Positions 2,063 through 39,417 of a DNA stretch of 41,777 bases are shown here, piece by piece. A program made the translations under genes and the position numbers. The stretch's first letter is position 1; each line of letters starts with the position of its first letter. Source of the DNA: a virus; UHGV virus genome UHGV-0060642; one strand, 5' to 3'. The notes below the pieces were generated by a model that saw nothing but the letters and a program-made list of their open reading frames with translations, was not told where the DNA came from and made no database searches.

Positions 2063-2639
2063 GGTTAACCTCCTGCGGCGGTTCTGCTGCAAAATACGCA
2101 ATACCTTTATCCCAGATGGATTTTATGGTCGTCCATGTGACTGGTACTTTAATTTCAATCCGCCCGCTACCGTCACAGGTATCGCAATCATCATCGCCAA
2201 AGCATTCCGGGCAGCTGATAAACGTAGTTTCTGAAAATTCACCGGATAGCGCACCCTTAGCGCCGTTCTCGGCTGTTAGTCTCTTCGGCACCATGACCCA
2301 ACCATCCGGAGTTACCGGAGAGTTGCCATTTACATCGAAGTTTGGCTCTGCGTCCTGAACCAGGAGGATGTAACCATTCTTGGCTGTATCAAGTTCTAAC
2401 GCCTCGGTGACGGTGCCGAAATAGCGATTACCTAAATCAGCATCACAAGTGCTTACATCAATGGAAACTTCCATGCCCTCGATTAATTCTGGCAAGTTGT
2501 AAGTTTGGCTTACAGGTTCGGCTTCCAGCGATGCCAGTGCGATTTCATAAGCCAGGCGCTCAATATTGTCTCGCACGTCCAGGCTGCCGATTCGCTCTCT
2601 GATTTCTTTAATCAGTTCTTTGTCGGTAAAAGTAGTCAT
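2055..2639 (-). CDS. Hypothetical protein with C-terminal CxxC...CxxCxGxG zinc-ribbon motif
   Basis: 194-aa ORF, ATG verified; motif SCPECFGDDDCDTCDGSGR near the C-terminus; acidic. Confidence 0.7.
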   Translation of the reverse strand: MTTFTDKELIKEIRERIGSLDVRDNIERLAYEIALASLEAEPVSQTYNLPELIEGMEVSIDVSTCDADLGNRYFGTVTEALELDTAKNGYILLVQDAEPNFDVNGNSPVTPDGWVMVPKRLTAENGAKGALSGEFSETTFISCPECFGDDDCDTCDGSGRIEIKVPVTWTTIKSIWDKGIAYFAAEPPQEVNLG

Positions 2640-2642
2640 GTG

Positions 2643-2930
2643 TTAGTCCTCATCCACTTCAACGCCATCTTTCAGCGTGATGCCGTGCCAATCATCAGCC
2701 CAACTGGTTAGCCCTGGCGCATCAATGCTAGGCATATAGACGCTTGCAGTGTGGTAGCCCTTATCGTTATCAATGCTGGCAACGTGCTCGCCGTTGTATG
2801 CGCTCAGCGTGTCCAGGACGCTATAAAACTTTCCTCCGGCTGCCCTGAAATCCTTTACAGCCTTCACAAGGCGATTCCACGCTTTTTCCTGTTCTGGCGT
2901 CAGGTCGATTAATTCCTGCAAAGTTGCCAT
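2643..2930 (-). CDS. Hypothetical protein
   Basis: 95-aa ORF with ATG start, tightly packed in the leftward early operon. Confidence 0.65.
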   Translation of the reverse strand: MATLQELIDLTPEQEKAWNRLVKAVKDFRAAGGKFYSVLDTLSAYNGEHVASIDNDKGYHTASVYMPSIDAPGLTSWADDWHGITLKDGVEVDED

Positions 2931-2931
2931 A

Positions 2932-3375
2932 TCACTCTCCTTTGATGCGAATGCCAGCGGCGCGGATTGCAGCGATGATCTCAGAAACTTTGTATGCCAT
3001 TACCGTTTGGTAATCATCGTGAAAATCTGTTCGATGAAGCATGCTGCTACGTTCCGGGAGCAGTATTTCCCGCGCTTCCAGTTCTGCAATGCGCTTTTTT
3101 GCTGCTTCCAGTTCATCCAGTAATTCCAGCACGGTAGCTGGATTGGCTGCGGTGATGAATTCAGCATTGGCCTGCTGTTCCATTTGGAAATCTTCATCGA
3201 AACCGCTTTCAGGATGCGCTCCTTCAATTCTGCAAATGGGAAGATATCCAACAACGTCACGATGAATTAGCGCATCATCACAATCAAATCGACTCTCTCC
3301 ATATTCGAGCGACCACACCCCACACGTTGCTTTCTCTGCCTTTTCACGCAGTGCCTGATAGTCAATTTCGCTCAC
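2932..3375 (-). CDS. Ead/Ea22-like protein (GTG start)
   Basis: 147 aa; segment ANPATVLELLDELEAAKKRIAELEA is typical of the Ead/Ea22-like family of lambdoid early-left regions; start codon GTG preceded by AAGGAGG. Confidence 0.7.
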   Translation of the reverse strand: MSEIDYQALREKAEKATCGVWSLEYGESRFDCDDALIHRDVVGYLPICRIEGAHPESGFDEDFQMEQQANAEFITAANPATVLELLDELEAAKKRIAELEAREILLPERSSMLHRTDFHDDYQTVMAYKVSEIIAAIRAAGIRIKGE

Positions 3376-29499: not shown

Positions 29500-30831
29500 A
29501 TGGCTACTTGGCAACAAGGAATCAACTCAGGCGGCTTTCTTGCTGGTATCGGTGGGCAAAACTCAAATGCGCCAAAGGCAAGTGATGTAAGTGAGGCGTT
29601 GGCCTATATTCGCCAGAACAACGAAATGGAGCGCTCAGGTCGCAATAACATCGGCCTTCAGGCGTTGCAGGGGCTTGGTAGTGTCGCTCAAACATATCAA
29701 GCCGCAAAGCAACAGGAAGCGGATGCTGCATTCCAAAAAGAATATGCGGCAGCCATCCAGTCAGGTGATCGACAGCAGGTTCGAGATCTGATGACCAAAT
29801 ATCCTGGTCAATTAGAGAAGATTCAGTCTGGTATGAAGTGGGCAGACGAAGACCAGCGTGATGAAATTGGCAATCTAGCGGCAGGCGGTCAAATTGCCTC
29901 CATGATGGGTGGTGATGCATTTAGCAAGTGGATTGGCAACAATGCAACCAGATTGTCTAATCAGGGGGTAGACCCACAACAACTCCTCAGTATGTATCAA
30001 AAAGACCCACAAGCAACATCACAACTTATCGGACAATATGGTCAGTTTGCATTAGGCCATGAAAAGTATTGGGATTTGCAGGACAAGATGGTTGGTCGCC
30101 AACTTGAGAAAGGGCGATTGGATGAAAGCATCCGTCAGGCTGATATGGAGAATGCGAGAGGATGGGCAAATATCCAAAACGCTCAACTAGACAGGGCTCA
30201 GCGGGCACAAATGCATAATGATAACGTAGCCCTGAAGTTGCAGGAATTAGGGATGAAACAACAGGAAAGCGGAAAGATTGACCCAAAACTTGTTCGAGAT
30301 CTGAATAGTGATATTAATGGGTTCTCAAAGAATTATTCTGCAATGCGCAGTGCTTCTGACAACCTACAAGCCCTTGGAAAGCGCAACACTCCAGCCGCGC
30401 AGTTGGGAATGATTTTCAACTATATGAAATCGCTGGATCCGCAATCTGTGGTACGCGAAGGTGAGCAAGTGCAGGTAAAACGCACTGATGGAATATTCGG
30501 CACACTTGGTAACTATGTTAGCCAATTATCTAACGGCAAGATGCTGAATAATGAGCAAGTCCAGGACTTAATCAACACCTCAAAACTGATGGCAAATACT
30601 GAAGGCGAAAAGTTTAACCAGCAAATGGATGATTATCTTTCAACGTATGGAGATTCTCTCCCCAGCGGACTAACTAAGCAATTGCAATCCAGAAAAGCCA
30701 AGCTGTATGAAGATATTCAGCAGCCTGCGCAACAACAGAGCAATAACCAACAACCGACAAATACCCAACAGCAGCAGAGTCAATCCGGATCATATACCTC
30801 AAAATCAGGCATTCAATTTACGGTGGAATGA
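29500..30831 (+). CDS. Ejection protein, gp20-like
   Basis: 443 aa, Gln-rich; assignment by synteny and composition. Confidence 0.7.
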
Positions 30832-32963
30832 TGAAAGTAACTGCAAACGGAAAGACATTTACCTTCCCTGATGGTACGAGCACGGAAGATATTGGCACCG
30901 CCATTGATGAGTATTTTGCTGGTCAGGCTGTTCAGCAACAAACAGTTAATCAGGCCAATAATGAACCAGCACGTGAAGAACCATCATTGATGCAACAAGC
31001 TGGCGATTGGCTCACTGGTGGTCAAAGTGCAGGGCAAATTGCAGAACAGGCTGGTCGTGGTCTGGTAAACATACCATTTGACGTATTGCAGGGTGGCGCA
31101 AGTCTGATTAATGCAATCAGTCAGGGGCTTGGTGGGCCAAAAGTATTGGATGATGTCTATCGTCCAGTAGACAGACCGACAGACCCCTACGCTCAAGCTG
31201 GAGAAACAATTGGTGGGTATCTCCTGCCAATTGGCACAGCGGCAAAAGCTGCTGGAGCGCCAGCAAAGCTCGCTGAAGATATCGGTTCCGCAGGAAACAT
31301 GATTGCAGGTTCTCTTGCTGATGCTGCAAATCAGGAGGGCGACTTTGCACAAAATGCTGCCATTAACGGTGGTATCAATATTGGTGCTCAAGGCGTTCTT
31401 TCAGGTGTCGGGCGCGTTATTGCGCCAAGGGTTTCACAGGCTCTTGGTGGTGCAGCACTGAATTCTGCTAATGATGTTTCGAAAATGGCAAAGTCTGGTA
31501 CAGGAAGAGAGATTATTGCCAGACAGTCAGCTAACGTGTCAGACGAAATAGCAAAAGCAGCAGATACTGCTGGAATAGATATCAACGCATTAACTCCTGG
31601 CATGAGATCAGGTAGTCGTGGTCTTGCTCAGGCGGAGGGGATTCTGGCGTCAAAGCCCGGAATTACACAGGATGCACACACCAAAGCATTCAGTGAAATA
31701 GAGTCGAAATTTAACTCAGCATTGGATGAGTTTGGGGCTGAAGCAGGAACTGCATCAGAAAAAAGTGCAGCCATAAAACAGAGGGTTTTGGCAAGCATTG
31801 ATAAAATGAAAAATTCAGAAAAGGCCGCATGGGATAGCGTCCGCTCCACGATGCCTGACGCAAAGGCCAGAATGTCAAACCTGAACGCTACAATTCAGGG
31901 TGATATTTTGGCTGGCATGCCGCTAACTCCTGAGATGAAACAATTCGCATCTGCTTATGCTAAAACTGGTAAAAAAGGAATCACGTTTGATGCCATGAAG
32001 GCATGGCGAAGTAAACTTGCTGACGCAGAGCAGAAGTATATAAGGTCTGGTGAGGCAAATACGGCAAGGCGCATGGCTGAGCTTCGTGATGCAGCAACGG
32101 AAGATATGCGCATAATGGCTCAAAATGGCGGTTTTCTTGATGACTGGCAAAAAGCTAATGACCTGTCAAAGGCAAGATTTACAGCACAAGAACAGGCTGA
32201 AGCAGCGTTTGGCAGAGACCTTGCAACTGATCAGTTGGTAAATAATGGCTCTAAGGCGTTACAGGGCTCAGCAAAAAGTGGAACAGGTCAGTTCCATAAA
32301 ATAATAAGCGCCCTACCTGAGTCGGAACGCGCGCCAGCAATTGCATCAATATTACAAGATGCAATGTCGCAAGGGGTACGCGGAGGTAAGTCTGAAGAGG
32401 CTGGAATTAAGCATATCGCGACTATTCTTACCCCACAAAACGTGAAGGCAATTAGTCGATATTCTCCAGAACTTGGCAGGATTACAAGTTCATACGGAGA
32501 ACTTGCAAGAGCAGCAACAAAGCCACTTCGATATGTTGAACAGACAGGGCGATCTATGCCAGCCATTAGCACTCTTGAGAATGGCCTTCATCCAGTTTTA
32601 GAGAGCGCATTGTCTGGCGCTTTTAGAACTACTGGCACTATCGCAGGGTTCTCTGGAGGAGGCGTTATTGGAGCAATAGCGGGTGGCGCTGCAGGTGGAG
32701 CAATTGATGCAATGGCAAAAGGAGCGATAGCGAAATTATCCGCAACTAGAAGCGGTCGTTACGCTATTGAAAAGGCTGTTCAAGAGGCAACAAAGGCAGT
32801 TAAGGTTGGGGCAAGTGATGGTGCATTAGCGGCGGCGGAACGCAGATTTATGGCAAATAAGGCCGCCGTAAAAGCAATACGCGAGGCACTAGGAAACGAA
32901 GAGTTCCAGCGTTTAGCAAGGGCTGGAATTGTGGCATCGCTAAGCGGAATGGCACAGGAGTAA
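30828..32963 (+). CDS. Ejection/DNA transfer protein, gp16-like
   Basis: 711 aa, Ala/Gly-rich with hydrophobic C-terminal segments; last gene of the rightward virion operon; by synteny. Confidence 0.7.
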
Positions 32964-33293
32964 TTAGTCATCCATGGATGGATTGAGCTTATCTCGTGTT
33001 GATGTGGCAATTTTCCCAACATTTTTCAACCAAGATTTTAAGAAGGATATGTCGTCCTTAATATCATGAATATCCTCATTCTTTATACGATCAACCTTAT
33101 CCTCTAGGCTCTCTATAGAACGCTCAATGCTAGACAGAGAGATTTTTAAGTCTCCTTGATCACGTTCCAGTGAGGATTTGAGAGCACAATATTCGTTTTC
33201 TAGAATTCCTATTTTTTTTGTTAGAGAGTGCATTCGATACTCATACACCAAACCAGAAACGACTAATGCAGCCAACAGAAACCATTCAAGCAC
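32964..33293 (-). CDS. Uncharacterized single-pass membrane protein with coiled coil (cassette gene C)
   Basis: 109 aa; GTG start preceded by AAGGGGG with about 5-nt spacing; N-terminal hydrophobic helix LEWFLLAALVVSGLVY, remainder predicted coiled coil. Confidence 0.65.
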   Translation of the reverse strand: MLEWFLLAALVVSGLVYEYRMHSLTKKIGILENEYCALKSSLERDQGDLKISLSSIERSIESLEDKVDRIKNEDIHDIKDDISFLKSWLKNVGKIATSTRDKLNPSMDD

Positions 33294-33315
33294 ACTAACC
33301 CCCTTAGTTGATATT

Positions 33316-33735
33316 TTATTTGTATGAAATCAACGAGTTAAGCTCCCTCTCATTTAGAGATTGGAATCTTTTTTCAGTTATATCAATGATGGCTGGCAAT
33401 AGTTTTTTTACCTTCTCATGACCATCAGGTTTAATGATAGCAATGATCTGGATATGAATTGGATATGTGTTGTGTACCGCAAATATCAAAAAGTTATCGC
33501 TAACTCTACGATGTATTGGCGTTGTTTTTAACCAAGGATCATCTACTCCAGGGATCCTGATGTGCGACTTGTAAATTCCCGATAAGACGGCGTGATGGTT
33601 TCTCTCAAACCCACCAATCTTACCAAGATAAGCTGAAACGGTGCCTCTGTTTTTGTAGTTTGCAAGAGCCTTCGCAAAGTATTGTTCTAATGGTCCAGCC
33701 GCTGCATCTACAACAATGCTTATGCGGTTTTCCAT
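33316..33735 (-). CDS. Uncharacterized protein, possibly YafO-like toxin fold (cassette gene B)
   Basis: 139 aa, ATG; segment SDNFLIFAVHNTYPIHIQIIAIIKPDGHEK resembles the recalled YafO C-terminal region (...HLVYCQG...LLIAILKPEPHK); weak and unverified. Confidence 0.65.
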   Translation of the reverse strand: MENRISIVVDAAAGPLEQYFAKALANYKNRGTVSAYLGKIGGFERNHHAVLSGIYKSHIRIPGVDDPWLKTTPIHRRVSDNFLIFAVHNTYPIHIQIIAIIKPDGHEKVKKLLPAIIDITEKRFQSLNERELNSLISYK

Positions 33736-34319
33736 TTTGGTGCTTCCATGCCAAATCTTTTATGTGAATCTTCAACTGATTTCTTGAATGAAGCCAACTC
33801 TTCTTCAGTGAACTCTTCAGGTTCAGCATATGATAGTGGTATGTGCTGCATTGCTAGCGTCACAAGCCCCATAGTTAGCCTTTTGTATTCTATAAAAGTA
33901 TTTATTGAGTGGTTTTTCATTGTTGTAAGAGTTGACATATGGGGCTTCCACGCATCGCTGTTCTCAGCGATGAAGAAGGTATACAACAGTTTCGCGATAC
34001 CATAATCAAGCTTAGATATTTGATCGTTCAACATATCTACATCGTCATGTTGAATATCAAGTGAGGAAATATCTTCTTCCGTACCATTACTTAATAGGTC
34101 AATGAATGTAATGTACTTTTTGCAAACTTCCTCTACAGGTGACATAACGCAGTAGATCTTGCTAAGAGCTTCAGAAGCCTGTTTTTTAGACAAAGAGCCG
34201 CTATGACTGCGATCAAAGTCTGAAATTGAACGCTCGATAGATGTTGATATGTCAGAAAAAACGTTTTCAATTTTTCCTGGCTCTTGATTCAGGATGGCCA
34301 TAACGCCTATCTCAATCAC
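33720..34319 (-). CDS. Uncharacterized acidic protein (cassette gene A)
   Basis: 199 aa from GTG at 34319 (AAGGT upstream) or 193 aa from ATG at 34301; overlaps gene B by 16 nt; about 42 bp downstream of mnt on the same strand. Confidence 0.6.
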   Translation of the reverse strand: MIEIGVMAILNQEPGKIENVFSDISTSIERSISDFDRSHSGSLSKKQASEALSKIYCVMSPVEEVCKKYITFIDLLSNGTEEDISSLDIQHDDVDMLNDQISKLDYGIAKLLYTFFIAENSDAWKPHMSTLTTMKNHSINTFIEYKRLTMGLVTLAMQHIPLSYAEPEEFTEEELASFKKSVEDSHKRFGMEAPKWKTA

Positions 34320-34361
34320 AATGTATACCTTGTTATTTTATATCAACGAACAAACATTGAC

Positions 34362-34610
34362 CTATCTGGTCTCGTACATTTTTTTCAGGGTTTCAAACAC
34401 CATCTTCTTAACAATTTCTGCTTGCTGATCAGCCAAGCGTTCAGCTTCGTCTCGATAGCCTGCAATCGGTGATGGCTTTGAGAGAGCATCCTGAACGATT
34501 TGTAATAACTCAGAGTTCATTGACCTTCCGTTAGCCTCTGCTCTTAATTTCAATTTTTCTCTTACTTCCAAAGGCATACGGAAGTTAAAGTGCGGATCGT
34601 CTCTAGCCAT
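34362..34610 (-). CDS. mnt: Mnt repressor (ribbon-helix-helix)
   Basis: MARDDPHFNFRMPLEVREKLKLRAEANGRSMNSELLQIVQDALSKPSP... matches recalled P22 Mnt. Confidence 0.93.
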   Translation of the reverse strand: MARDDPHFNFRMPLEVREKLKLRAEANGRSMNSELLQIVQDALSKPSPIAGYRDEAERLADQQAEIVKKMVFETLKKMYETR

Positions 34611-34700: not shown

Positions 34701-34859
34701 ATGAAAGGAATGAGCAAAATGCCGCAGTTCAATTTGCGGTGGCCTAAAGAAGTATTGGATTTGGTGCGTAAGGTGGCGGAAGAGAACGGGCGATCTGTTA
34801 ACTCTGAGATTTACAAGCGAGTGATGGACAGCCTGAAGAGAGAGGGGATTACGGTATGA
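34701..34859 (+). CDS. arc: Arc repressor
   Basis: MKGMSKMPQFNLRWPKEVLDLVRKVAEENGRSVNSEIYKRVMDSLKREG matches recalled P22 Arc; GAGGTGA RBS. Confidence 0.93.
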   Translation: MKGMSKMPQFNLRWPKEVLDLVRKVAEENGRSVNSEIYKRVMDSLKREGITV

Positions 34860-35125
34860 AGGTGTCATTGCTTGATCGTTCTTTACAATTTTTGTCTGGC
34901 GCAATCATTGTAGTTTGCTTGCTCGTGATTTTTACATCGTTAATCAATATGTATCAATCAGGGGAACGATTGACAAAGACGATAGAGGAAAAAAAATCAG
35001 TCTCAAATTACGAAGTATCACATGCACATAACGATTTAGTAGAAAGCCTTGACCGTATTAACAAGAGGCTTGACGAGACAAATATGCTACTTAAGCAAAT
35101 TCAAAATGAAGTGGAAAAACGTTGA
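34856..35125 (+). CDS. Uncharacterized single-pass membrane/coiled-coil protein coupled to arc
   Basis: 89 aa; ATGA overlap with the arc stop; hydrophobic helix GAIIVVCLLVIFTSLINMY then coiled coil; not present between arc and ant in P22 as recalled. Confidence 0.65.
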   Translation: MKVSLLDRSLQFLSGAIIVVCLLVIFTSLINMYQSGERLTKTIEEKKSVSNYEVSHAHNDLVESLDRINKRLDETNMLLKQIQNEVEKR

Positions 35126-35155
35126 AGCCCCAACTGCTGTAACAGTCAGGGCTTC
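35112..35155 (-). terminator. Possible terminator of a sar-like antisense RNA (opposite the ant 5' region)
   Basis: Extended hairpin GAAGCCCcaACTG...CAGTcaGGGCTTC; on the minus strand it is followed by AACGTTTTT (approximate coordinates). Confidence 0.4.
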
Positions 35156-35187
35156 GGTATCAACAAAACTTACGAGGTATTATTGAT

Positions 35188-36188: not shown

Positions 36189-36689
36189 TTACCTACTCAA
36201 CAGATGGTCAGCAACCATGTTTGCTGCCTTATAAGCTATAGCCGCTTCATCAATGGTGTTGAATCTCCCAAGGGTTATGTTTTTACCTGAGACATTTATC
36301 TGAGCTTGCCATTGATTTCTGGCTTGACAGAAAGTTACCCCCTTGATTCCAGCATTGCTATTTCGAGGTCCGACATTTAATGCATTTACGACTCTGCTAA
36401 CATCCCTAAGGTTTGAGATTGCGTTATTTCTTCTGTTTCTATCAATGTGGTCAATCTCTTGTTTGGGCCATTCGCCATATACATACAGCCAGGCAAGTCT
36501 ATGTGCAAAATATCTTACGCCATCAATATTAATTGCGTTATATCCATAAGAAATTGTGCCAGCAACTTTCCCAACAGCACCTCTGGCGCTTAATTTCTTT
36601 TTCCAAGTGAAAATTCCTGTTTCTTTATTGTAATCGAGAACCTCCATAAGGCGCTCCCGAGTTACTACCTCGTGACGTCTCTTACTCAT
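36189..36689 (-). CDS. HNH endonuclease with AP2-type DNA-binding domain (homing-endonuclease-like)
   Basis: HNH signature [26 protein letters not shown]2-like [40 protein letters not shown]; start at internal ATG 36689 preceded by GGAG. Confidence 0.8.
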
Positions 36690-36702
36690 TATTTTCTCCG
36701 GA

Positions 36703-39417
36703 ATGTTTATTATGCCAGAACAATTATACAACGTAGTTGTTTCACAACCAAGTCAGTTATTTACTTTAGCTCGCTCGTTTAAAGCAAATGCCAATGGCAA
36801 AATTTATATCGGTAAAATTGACACTGACCCGGTAAATCCTGAAAACCAGATTCAAGTTTATGTAGAGAACGAAGATGGCTCTCACGTTCCTGTTGCACAG
36901 CCAATCGTCATCAATGCCGCTGGGTATCCAGTATATAACGGACAGATTGCCAAATTCGTAACCGTGCAAGGCCATTCTATGGCTGTTTACGATGCTTATG
37001 GCACTCAGCAGTTTTATTTTCCAAATGTATTAAAATACGATCCAGATCAGTTTGGCCCAGACTTCAAAGAGCAGTTATCTCAATCAGGAGCATACATTAA
37101 TGATGATTCAAAAGGTGATGCATTAATTGGGGTAAGGCAGCCATTTACCGGGGCTGTAACTATAACTCAGCATGAAAACAATGCTCTTTTCTTAAATGTA
37201 AAACAATTCGGAGCAATTGGGGATGGGAAATATCATCCATTATCTGAGAGGTTTTCTTCAATTTCTGAAGCAAAATCCTTATATCCTTTTGTTGACTCAT
37301 TATCTCAGTCAATAGACTGGGCCGCGTGGCAAGCTGCCCTTAACACAGGAAAGGTTATTTATGGTACTGATAATGCGTATGTAATAACGGATACGTTAAC
37401 ACCTGTTTCTGGTGGTGGGATAATTGGTCTTGGTGTGGGCAAATGGGTCTCCGGATATACTGCAACATTTGCTCCTGATATTACCACAGGGACCACATTC
37501 CTGATGTACGGGGTAGGAAATAAAAAATATACTGTAGATTGTGTTTCTAATATGGATGTTAGTGGTGGTGTGGTTTCTAATCCATCTTCCGAAGACCCGT
37601 ATACAACAACAGCACCTGCGTCATCATATGATTTATTGGATTTTACTAACGGTGATGCTAATGGGACTACAAGAGCCACGCTTAAACCATTCTCTGCCGC
37701 AATATTGATGCCTGAGACAGGATGTGTTCGCCTTGAGAACTTTCGTGTTGTTCCATATTTCAATGGGCTGGATGGTTATAAAGACATTGCAAATACCGGT
37801 CTTGGCGATGAGTGGGATGTAGGTATTTGGTCACGTGCGTCTTTTGGCAATGAATACCGCAATTTGCAGGTGGTTGGATACTGGCGCAAGACGGCACTTT
37901 TAAAAACGAACATTCCTGTATCTGGCACGCTGGCTGCTCAGGGCGAGGATGAAAACTATTATCACTGTAGATTCCAGGGATTCAAGGGTGTTTCGATCCG
38001 CGCCAATGATGTATTCCGAATTACAGCGGTAACGTCCAGCACTATCGAAATCCCATGGTCAGCAAGCCACACCTTCGAAACGTCCGGAGTTTTAAGATCT
38101 GGAGGCAGGAATTTCACTTATTCAGGATTATCCGTATCCGGTGATAAGTTAGTATTTACTGGAGTGTCTAACGCTTCTGAGGCAACAGTAGGTTCTACTA
38201 TACGGCGAAATGACATAGATAACTTTGGTATGGCGGGAACGCAATTTTTCGATTGCTACATTACCAGCCTGTATCACCACACACATCTGCTTGCCACATC
38301 GCAATACCTGTCTCAACCATTCAGCCGACCATCAGAGTGTATGGAGGTTTCAGGGGAACCAGTTCGCGGTGTACAGGTACATGCAGGAACCATTCAGGGA
38401 TGGGATGATGTTCTTATTCATCTGCATGACTGTGGAAATATGAACTTTTACAGTACATATTTCGAAAGCCAGCAAGCATATGTAACTATAAATGGTGGTA
38501 ATGCTATTGGTTATGGAGCACGTATGATAGCTTCCCGGCAATCAACAAGCTCATTACCATATGCAGCAGGGAATACACGAGTGCTTAGAATGGTCGGGTG
38601 CTCTGAAGGCAATGGCGTTGACTGGGGTCCTGTATTTAACAACTATACAGGAGGAAGATATAATTCTGGAGACGGTGTATTTAACCCCCGCGATGCATTT
38701 ATAGACCATAAATCTCTTCCTGAGCAGTCAGGAGGTGAGTCAAGACTCGTATCACAAAAAGGAAATGCCAGAGTAGTATGTGGTGTTGGTAAAACTGTAC
38801 TGCTTGGACCAACGTCAGGAGATTGTAATTTACAGAGTAATACCGGAAGTTTAAATATTAGAAGTGGGATAAGAGTAAGAGTCGGTCACGCTGATGGAAC
38901 AGACTGGTGGTTGGCAGATGCTAATAAAATAGCTCCTGTTGATGATAATGTTAAAGCTATTGGACAGCCATCAAACAGATGCTCTGTTATCTATGCAGGA
39001 ACCGGGTCAATCAATACATCAGATGAAACTCTTAAAACAAGATATGATATTCTTAATGCAGAGCGTGATGCCGCTATTGAAATAAAGTCAGTCATCTATA
39101 AATTTAAATTTAATGACTCAATTAATCACAAAGGAATTGAGTCGTCCAGGTATCATTTTGGCGTTGGCGCTCAAACTGTAGGGGATATTCTTAGAAAGCA
39201 TGGTTTAAATCCTGAGCAATATGCTTTTTGGTGTTACGATGAATGGCCTGACGTATGGGATGAAGAGGTGATAACTGAAGAGAGCACAGATCCTGATACA
39301 GGTGAGAAAATTTATTCTCAATATAAAACAGGAGATATGATTCTTGTAAAAAAAGCAGGAGGACGCTACGGAATTCGTTATGACGAATTGGCTATGTTTA
39401 TATTAATGGCAATGTAG
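36703..39417 (+). CDS. Tailspike: P22-type head-binding domain, central beta-helix domain, C-terminal intramolecular-chaperone (S74-like) domain
   Basis: N-terminus ...[49 protein letters not shown]...[15 protein letters not shown]...NVLKYDPDQ matches the P22 gp9 head-binding domain; C-terminus ...[11 protein letters not shown]...[23 protein letters not shown] resembles auto-cleaving chaperone domains of T5 pb1 and K1F endosialidase; alternative ATG at 36712. Confidence 0.88.

Follow-up and report, generated by a model that had tools for sequence, protein, structure and literature searches.

What does a P22-like prophage carry between its last ejection gene and the repressor gene mnt, where phage P22 itself holds the superinfection exclusion gene sieA? 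The question is raised by the virus genome UHGV-0060642, a stretch of 41,777 nucleotides (nt) that was analysed as a whole and is referred to as the window in the following. Here, three tightly packed open reading frames (ORFs) on the minus strand, termed A, B and C, fill this place, and the initial annotation had regarded them as a single uncharacterized cassette, possibly a toxin-based module for abortive infection or exclusion. The ORFs themselves were described accurately, including their positions and sizes (Table 1), the overlap of A and B by 16 nt and the distance of 42 nt between mnt and A; B and C are separated by 22 nt. A, B and C are real genes rather than chance ORFs, as each of them matches a PHROG family from end to end and A and B are intact at no less than 99% identity in 44 complete Escherichia coli genomes. 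Yet, only A and B appear to belong together: they probably constitute a bicistronic type II toxin-antitoxin module that arrived as one mobile insertion between mnt and the sieA slot, with B as a YafO-type toxin and A as its cognate antitoxin equipped with a neutralising tail.

The most familiar component of this pair is B, which is recognised by the Pfam profile YafO_toxin (PF13957) with 45.1 bits at a cut-off of 25 (E = 1.1e-11, profile positions 2-98 of 101), so that the resemblance to YafO noted in the initial annotation holds. The AlphaFold model of B is confident (pLDDT 93.2) and has a RelE/ParE-type (BECR) fold, with HigB2, HigB1, HigB and YafQ among its best structure matches in the PDB and RelE lower down, even though no PDB chain shows detectable sequence similarity to B. 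Compared with the HigB/HigA, YafQ/DinJ and RelE/RelB pairs, B possesses a long extra C-terminal helix (residues 105-125), and their antitoxins are unrelated to A. The well-known relative is the YafN-YafO system of E. coli K-12, a type II system in which YafO is a ribosome-associated mRNA interferase with a reported association with the 50S subunit. In an alignment of ten sequences that includes K-12 YafO, the residues F43, E44, R45, H58, R77, L83, P103, H106, E121 and F124 are invariant; the F-E-R triplet, H58, R77 and H106 are thus common to both proteins, which fall into the same Pfam family. From this kinship, we infer that B is an RNA-cutting mRNA interferase that would, when free, cut mRNA and halt translation. 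In RefSeq, B is already named 'type II toxin-antitoxin system YafO family toxin' by the Prokaryotic Genome Annotation Pipeline, and A and C are listed as hypothetical proteins. Hence, the label 'uncharacterized' does not suit B, but it is apt for A, in which no known domain is found.

The putative antitoxin A was described as acidic and helical, which agrees with its low isoelectric point (pI) and with a predicted structure that is all-helical, although of low confidence in the first 20 residues. The gene starts with GTG, and some gene callers choose a conserved in-frame ATG at 34301, seven codons in, which results in a protein of 193 amino acids (aa). Pfam recognises no domain in A or in 16 of its relatives, and A cannot be aligned to YafN, as had been expected from its first inspection. 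The two systems hence differ in their partners, a helical protein of 199 aa in one case and the 97-aa Phd/YefM-type YafN in the other, as well as in their location, i.e. a prophage immunity region for A-B and the dinB operon for yafN-yafO. What they have in common is that the candidate antitoxin is encoded first, which is the gene order of the YafO family (PMC11980606). In the literature on YafO-like toxins, PF13957, hkcB and YafO in conjunction with prophages, no description of a partner of about 200 aa was found. A most likely belongs to a very rare, hitherto undescribed antitoxin family.

The assignment of A as the partner of B is mainly carried by their linkage, which is strict. In four genera, represented by E. 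coli, Salmonella, Pectobacterium and Xenorhabdus, A comes before B with the same overlap of 16 nt, and the pair occurs in more than ten distinct contexts, among them stand-alone chromosomal sites. In Pectobacterium, it stands by itself among housekeeping genes, flanked by an ABC-transporter operon and gcvP, in Xenorhabdus alone at two different chromosomal sites, and in a Salmonella P22-like prophage downstream of mnt, there without hkcB, the gene that C represents in the window. Moreover, an A-family gene lies directly upstream of all sampled non-canonical YafO genes (136-139 aa, 35-81% identical to B), the upstream genes having been assigned either by an A-family profile search or by an A-family hidden Markov model built without them (E = 2e-18 and 2e-7). 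Even where the YafO relative is more remote (35-47% identity to B), a gene of 187-202 aa precedes it in every sampled locus, and these loci range from a cI-type immunity region and a lambdoid nin region to the tail region of a Pantoea prophage and Salmonella Rac-like prophages. Starting from A instead, a YafO gene follows immediately downstream in seven of seven A-family loci in IMG/VR; the broad A alignment proved too divergent for the locus scan, for which narrower alignments were used. Downstream of the A-family gene for P0038, one locus (L017, 3001-4009) has a complete YafO gene of 139 aa, and another (L018, 632-1479) has one that is truncated to 78 aa, with A intact. Loss of the toxin ahead of A is the order of decay to be expected if A protects against B. 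The pair is also complementary in charge, with an acidic A (pI 4.9) and a basic B (pI 9.6). Taken together, A and B show the bicistronic and overlapping arrangement and the pairing across unrelated contexts by which type II modules are recognised, and they form a self-contained mobile two-gene unit that is inserted between mnt and the sieA slot.

A possible mode of neutralisation is suggested by the C-terminal ends of the A family. Two types of tail occur, each with its own downstream toxin family, and the tail covaries with the partner, the body of the protein being conserved across both. The type 1 tail, F..SV..SHK(R).G...P.W, is located at or a few residues from the C-terminus and is always followed by a YafO-family gene; that of A itself ends in ...SHKRFGMEAPKWKTA. 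The type 2 tail, P-E-W-V-x-S-G-D-D-F-V-K-W-I, is always followed by a member of a different family of 125-130 aa, phrog_5954, for which neither Pfam nor NCBIfam gives a match. By eye, the partner of the distant A homologues (alignment A4) had been taken for YafO-like, an assignment that was abandoned in favour of phrog_5954 after a profile-profile probability of 0.1% and no hits in Pfam or NCBIfam. A scan of viral contigs for the phrog_5954 family yielded 18 loci. A type-2 A-family gene is situated upstream in six of them, and in the others this position is taken by a SocA_Panacea antitoxin (PF13274, 70 bits), an 89-aa protein or a 52-aa ORF. Related versions of a tail, ...[DE][DE]-[FL]-x-x-W-[ILMV], recur at the end of the four kinds of phrog_5954 partners, and the fuller P-E-W-V-x-S-G-D-D-F-V-K-W form is common to the A-family and the 89-aa partners. 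Panacea is an experimentally validated antitoxin domain (PMC8832971), and in modular antitoxins, exchangeable terminal elements are responsible for neutralisation, a principle termed 'linear neutralisation' (PMC10440598). The simplest reading would be that the phrog_5954 proteins are toxins and that they are neutralised through the tail that their partners have in common. In analogy to this, the type 1 tail of A may neutralise B: A would consist of a helical body of about 160 aa and a short C-terminal tail (F..SV..SHKR.G...P.W) that binds B and blocks it directly. A is thus most likely a modular type II antitoxin, as judged by this parallel.

This arrangement closely recalls the Panacea (PanA/SocA, PF13274)/NetFlax systems, in which one antitoxin body is likewise combined with exchangeable, toxin-specific ends, and the type 2 tail is literally common to both (PMC8832971, PMC10440598). 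The main texts of these two papers do not mention YafO. In contrast to Panacea, PF13274 is absent from A and its relatives, and two partner families are seen instead of dozens; A seems to resemble PanA in its apparent mode of action, not in family membership. A more far-reaching and rather speculative idea, which we regard as possible but unlikely, is that the A family represents a second portable antitoxin body of this kind. Its domain of about 160 aa would then serve as a sensor or as a domain of regulated stability, with phage infection or a change of the prophage switch as the signal, the tail would plug whichever toxin is attached, and shut-off of the lysogenic transcript or a phage trigger would arm the toxin against superinfecting phages. 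Capture of such pairs behind lysogeny repressors would, in that case, be a general design.

Several observations weigh against a YafO-type toxin-antitoxin module with a role in defence. With about twice the size of typical antitoxins, A is unusually large, and no helix-turn-helix (HTH), ribbon-helix-helix or other DNA-binding domain and no known antitoxin fold was detected in it. A DNA-binding domain for autoregulation is common, albeit not universal, in type II antitoxins. B and K-12 YafO are only 19% identical, and the NCBIfam equivalog NF007377 scores B with 14.2 bits, far under its cut-off of 153 bits; by these measures, B is a member of the YafO family and not the same protein as, or an orthologue (equivalog) of, E. 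coli YafO. In addition, the 44 E. coli copies of A-B are nearly clonal, so that their intactness is little evidence on selection. Finally, PADLOC-DB 2.0 returned noise-level matches for A and C (E = 0.002-0.006), none for B and none for the relatives, in line with the initial annotation, in which no known defence family had been recognised for A or C.

The size of A and its lack of a recognisable antitoxin or DNA-binding fold would also fit the idea that A is not an antitoxin at all. B could be a non-toxic or self-limited protein with a RelE fold next to an unrelated, co-transcribed helical protein such as a regulator, scaffold or phage-targeting effector, or A could be the active component and B its modulator. 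The conservation of the A body across two downstream partners is compatible with this, as the body might carry the main function. Yet the pair is built like a type II module in the order and overlap of its genes, in its complementary charges and in its strict pairing, and the alternative partner family, phrog_5954, also occurs directly behind proteins with the bona fide Panacea antitoxin domain, which carry the same tail. Furthermore, it is the toxin that decays first at the P0038 locus, and the putative active-site residues of B are kept across the family including K-12 YafO. We therefore consider it quite improbable that A has another role than that of the antitoxin.

If A and B are a toxin-antitoxin pair, how does C fit in? 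C is identical to the hkcB product of phage HK620 at 97% of its residues, and to the versions of CUS-3 and epsilon34 (gp14 in the latter) at 49%. It is the same gene in the same position as HK620 hkcB and epsilon34 gp14, with no difference in kind. The A protein of the window, in turn, is 98.5% identical to that of CUS-3. Since C is of the HK620 type and A of the CUS-3 type, a recombination joint must lie between B and C, and homology to HK620 indeed stops at 33309, just below the stop codon of B. The window accordingly combines an HK620-type hkcB with adjoining CUS-3-type A, B and mnt. Exactly at this point, a 19-nt junction, AACTAAGGRGGTTRGTRTG, is found, which occurs once in the window and in none of 100 shuffles. 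The same 19 nt also start P22 sieA, hkcB of HK620, epsilon34 and CUS-3, a Salmonella ORF for a hydrophobic membrane protein of 41 aa and two genes of E. coli STEC383 (Table 1). The junction looks like a 'boundary sequence' at which genes in the sieA slot are swapped by recombination. By these comparisons, C is an accessory gene of its own, located in the sieA slot and exchanged independently of A-B.

The assumption of a single cassette made in the initial annotation is consequently not tenable. The A-B pair occurs without C in the aforementioned Salmonella P22-like prophage, in STEC383, in Pectobacterium and in Xenorhabdus, and hkcB occurs without A-B in HK620 and epsilon34. Its proposal of a toxin-based module is supported for A and B, but C is no part of it. 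A joint three-gene exclusion or abortive infection system, in which for instance C as a membrane protein senses a phage and releases the toxin B, was nevertheless considered. It might be expected from the tight same-strand packing, with the 16-nt overlap and the 22-nt gap and no terminator in between, and from the fact that a small gene with a hydrophobic N-terminus always follows B in P22-like prophages. However, no third gene accompanies the pair in Pectobacterium and Xenorhabdus, identical A and B proteins are followed by unrelated genes in STEC383, HK620 and epsilon34 carry hkcB alone, the window itself joins CUS-3-type A-B to an HK620-type hkcB, and the 19-nt junction also precedes P22 sieA, where A-B is absent. 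A system of all three genes is thus very improbable, still more so than a pair in which A is no antitoxin.

What remains of the comparison to P22 is the analogy between C and SieA, an inner-membrane superinfection exclusion protein of 164 aa with several transmembrane helices predicted by TMHMM (PMC10883804). P22 does hold sieA between gene 16 and mnt, as the initial annotation had it, but the slot proper corresponds to C alone, with A-B inserted between mnt and the slot. C takes the position of sieA in a P22-like prophage, with gene 16 on one side and mnt/gene 9 on the other; it is convergent with gene 16, is found downstream of mnt, starts with the identical 19-nt junction and has a hydrophobic N-terminus. 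Unlike SieA, it comprises 109 aa with a single weak hydrophobic segment. BLASTP gives no alignment between C and P22 SieA, and the SieA motif FxRYPxEAxxFNK is absent from C. A sieA split into pieces was ruled out, as neither A nor C resembles SieA. The anticipated transmembrane helix followed by a coiled coil is only partly borne out: an N-terminal hydrophobic segment is present, although borderline (Kyte-Doolittle mean over 19 residues of 1.5-1.6), and it is followed by a charged helical region whose heptad periodicity is merely weak. C belongs to phrog_5962 of unknown function, and the function of hkcB, which is assigned to the 'ant moron' region, is unknown in the literature as well (PMC2629481). 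Among P22-like phages, sieA is present in 22 of 66, and CUS-3, which lacks it, is itself excluded by P22 SieA (PMC10883804). An ORF of 89 aa between arc and ant (phrog_27312, function unknown) encodes a protein that resembles C in architecture, with a pronounced transmembrane segment at its N-terminus, but shows no similarity to C in sequence. Its start overlaps the arc stop codon, its end abuts the sar RNA, and P22 has no gene there.

The expression of A and B in the lysogen may be linked to that of mnt, as had been suggested initially from their common strand and close spacing. No terminator-like site was found between mnt and A, and the RNA of the spacer folds no better than shuffled sequence (z = 0.15); in epsilon34, unlike in the window, a terminator is annotated after mnt. 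Because a terminator or stable hairpin is missing, read-through into A-B from Pmnt, for which a promoter-like TTGAGA-17-TATCAT is situated ahead of mnt (minus strand, 34666 to 34638), is plausible. The spacer moreover contains a -10-like TATAAAAT (34335-34342) and an AAGG Shine-Dalgarno sequence (34328-34331), both kept in the stand-alone copies of Pectobacterium and Xenorhabdus, although the spacing of TATAAAAT relative to the Shine-Dalgarno sequence is odd. The stand-alone copies must carry a promoter of their own. In the lysogen, transcription of A and B probably starts at Pmnt and continues into the pair, with a small promoter of the module itself probably contributing as well. Should A disappear more rapidly than B, as might happen after a phage has stopped host transcription or the prophage has been lost, B would be set free and would abort the infection or kill the prophage-cured cell.

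Which of these outcomes matters to the prophage bears on the role of the module. To stabilise plasmids and prophages is a classical role of type II modules, and a function of this kind in the prophage, or selfish persistence, is no less ordinary than defence. A and B might hence be a true toxin-antitoxin pair that merely kills cells losing the prophage, or simply persists, and offers no protection from other phages. This would be in accord with the mobility of the pair, its presence at chromosomal sites without phage context and the lack of matching defence-system models. On the other hand, the A-B stretch is found on none of 72,556 plasmids, and toxin-antitoxin-like pairs of these families recur just downstream of lysogeny repressors and on the same strand, be it Mnt, cI/S24-type, RacR-like HTH or CI-HTH repressors (Table 1), i.e. 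right where genes of advantage to the lysogen are typically located in phages. A Salmonella prophage with a yafO-like gene also renders its host resistant to typing phages, an effect that has not been mapped to a gene (PMC9836087). A purely selfish or stabilising pair therefore seems unlikely to us, but it is clearly the foremost competitor to the toxin-antitoxin module proposed above, for which abortive infection or exclusion would be a possible function.

Regarding its source, the locus is, as far as nucleotide identity tells, part of a CUS-3-like P22-type prophage of E. coli K1. Coliphage CUS-3 is 96.5% identical to the region across 85% of its length, and prophages of avian and human extra-intestinal E. 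coli K1 strains reach 99.9% identity. Among 5426 complete E. coli genomes, the A-B stretch is present in 44, always chromosomal, single-copy, full-length and at least 99% identical, and CUS-3 is its only carrier among 50,697 phage records. The GC content is 37-41% over A, B and C and 45-51% in the structural genes. At the far end of the three genes, the stop codons of C and gene 16 adjoin. The immunity-I region is complete, with promoter-like sites fitting divergent Pmnt and Pant, arc, the sar RNA (Rfam RF00262, 63.6 bits) and ant; the Rfam scan detected nothing else nearby and no RNA family inside A-C. Carriers of A-B differ in this immunity region, which is a mosaic to judge from its gene content: CUS-3 and UTI89 have a second Mnt/Arc-family gene beside mnt, which is absent from the window and from avian pathogenic E. 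coli (APEC) E19035. Between ant and the tailspike gene, the window contains a homing endonuclease-like ORF with HNH_3 and AP2 domains that overlaps the tailspike start; the near-identical prophage of APEC E19035 has merely a 179-nt gap there. The tailspike combines a P22-type head-binding N-terminus with a C-terminal end that matches the endosialidase chaperone domain (Peptidase_S74) at the Pfam cut-off and the endosialidase catalytic domain (End_tail_spike) with a score just below its cut-off. These matches would fit a host with a K1-type capsule.

Table 1. Coordinates of the features discussed; positions refer to the window unless a comparison locus (L) is named.
Feature	Position	Strand	Remarks
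Gene 16	30828..32963	+	Ejection/DNA transfer protein; convergent bounding neighbour; ORF, named DNA transfer protein in CUS-3 and E. coli genomes
Gene C (hkcB)	32964..33293	-	109 aa; GTG start behind AAGGGGG
19-nt junction AACTAAGGGGGTTAGTGTG	33291..33309	-	Shine-Dalgarno sequence and start codon of C; left-hand edge of the A-B insertion
Gene B	33316..33735	-	139 aa; YafO-family toxin (predicted), RelE/ParE-type fold
Gene A	33720..34319	-	199 aa from GTG; candidate antitoxin
mnt-A spacer	34320..34361	-	42 nt; right-hand edge of the A-B insertion
mnt	34362..34610	-	Arc/Mnt-type repressor, first gene of the leftward lysogen-expressed transcript; Pfam Arc 96 bits, Repressor_Mnt 55 bits
89-aa ORF between arc and ant	34856..35125	+	phrog_27312
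sar RNA	35120..35186	-	RF00262
HNH_3/AP2 ORF	36189..36731	-	Homing endonuclease-like
Tailspike gene	36703..39417	+
19-nt junction elsewhere	L026 1304-1322; L027 2485-2503; L003 2386-2404; L008 6017-6035; L025 1694-1712 and 3476-3494		L026, P22 sieA; L027, HK620; L003, epsilon34
Second Mnt/Arc-family gene	L001 4729-4986; L013 3229-3486		L001, CUS-3; L013, UTI89
Loci with a pair behind a repressor	L016, L022-L024, L036, L043, L045, L007, L008, window
phrog_5954 loci	L045-L052 (about 2446-3345); L041/L042 (about 2727-3375); L043/L044		SocA_Panacea in L045-L052

In summary, A would provide the cognate partner for a branch of the YafO family whose members are publicly annotated as lone toxins beside a 'hypothetical protein'. 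It may represent a new antitoxin family with exchangeable, toxin-specific tails, and the tail shared with Panacea would lend independent support, on the sequence level, to the concept of linear neutralisation. With the sieA slot marked by the 19-nt junction and filled with swapped small genes, hkcB becomes a candidate that can be tested for a role like that of SieA. For the E. coli K1 strains of neonatal meningitis, of the urinary tract and of birds, A-B is a candidate for a function that their pathogenic lineages express from CUS-3-type prophages in the lysogen.

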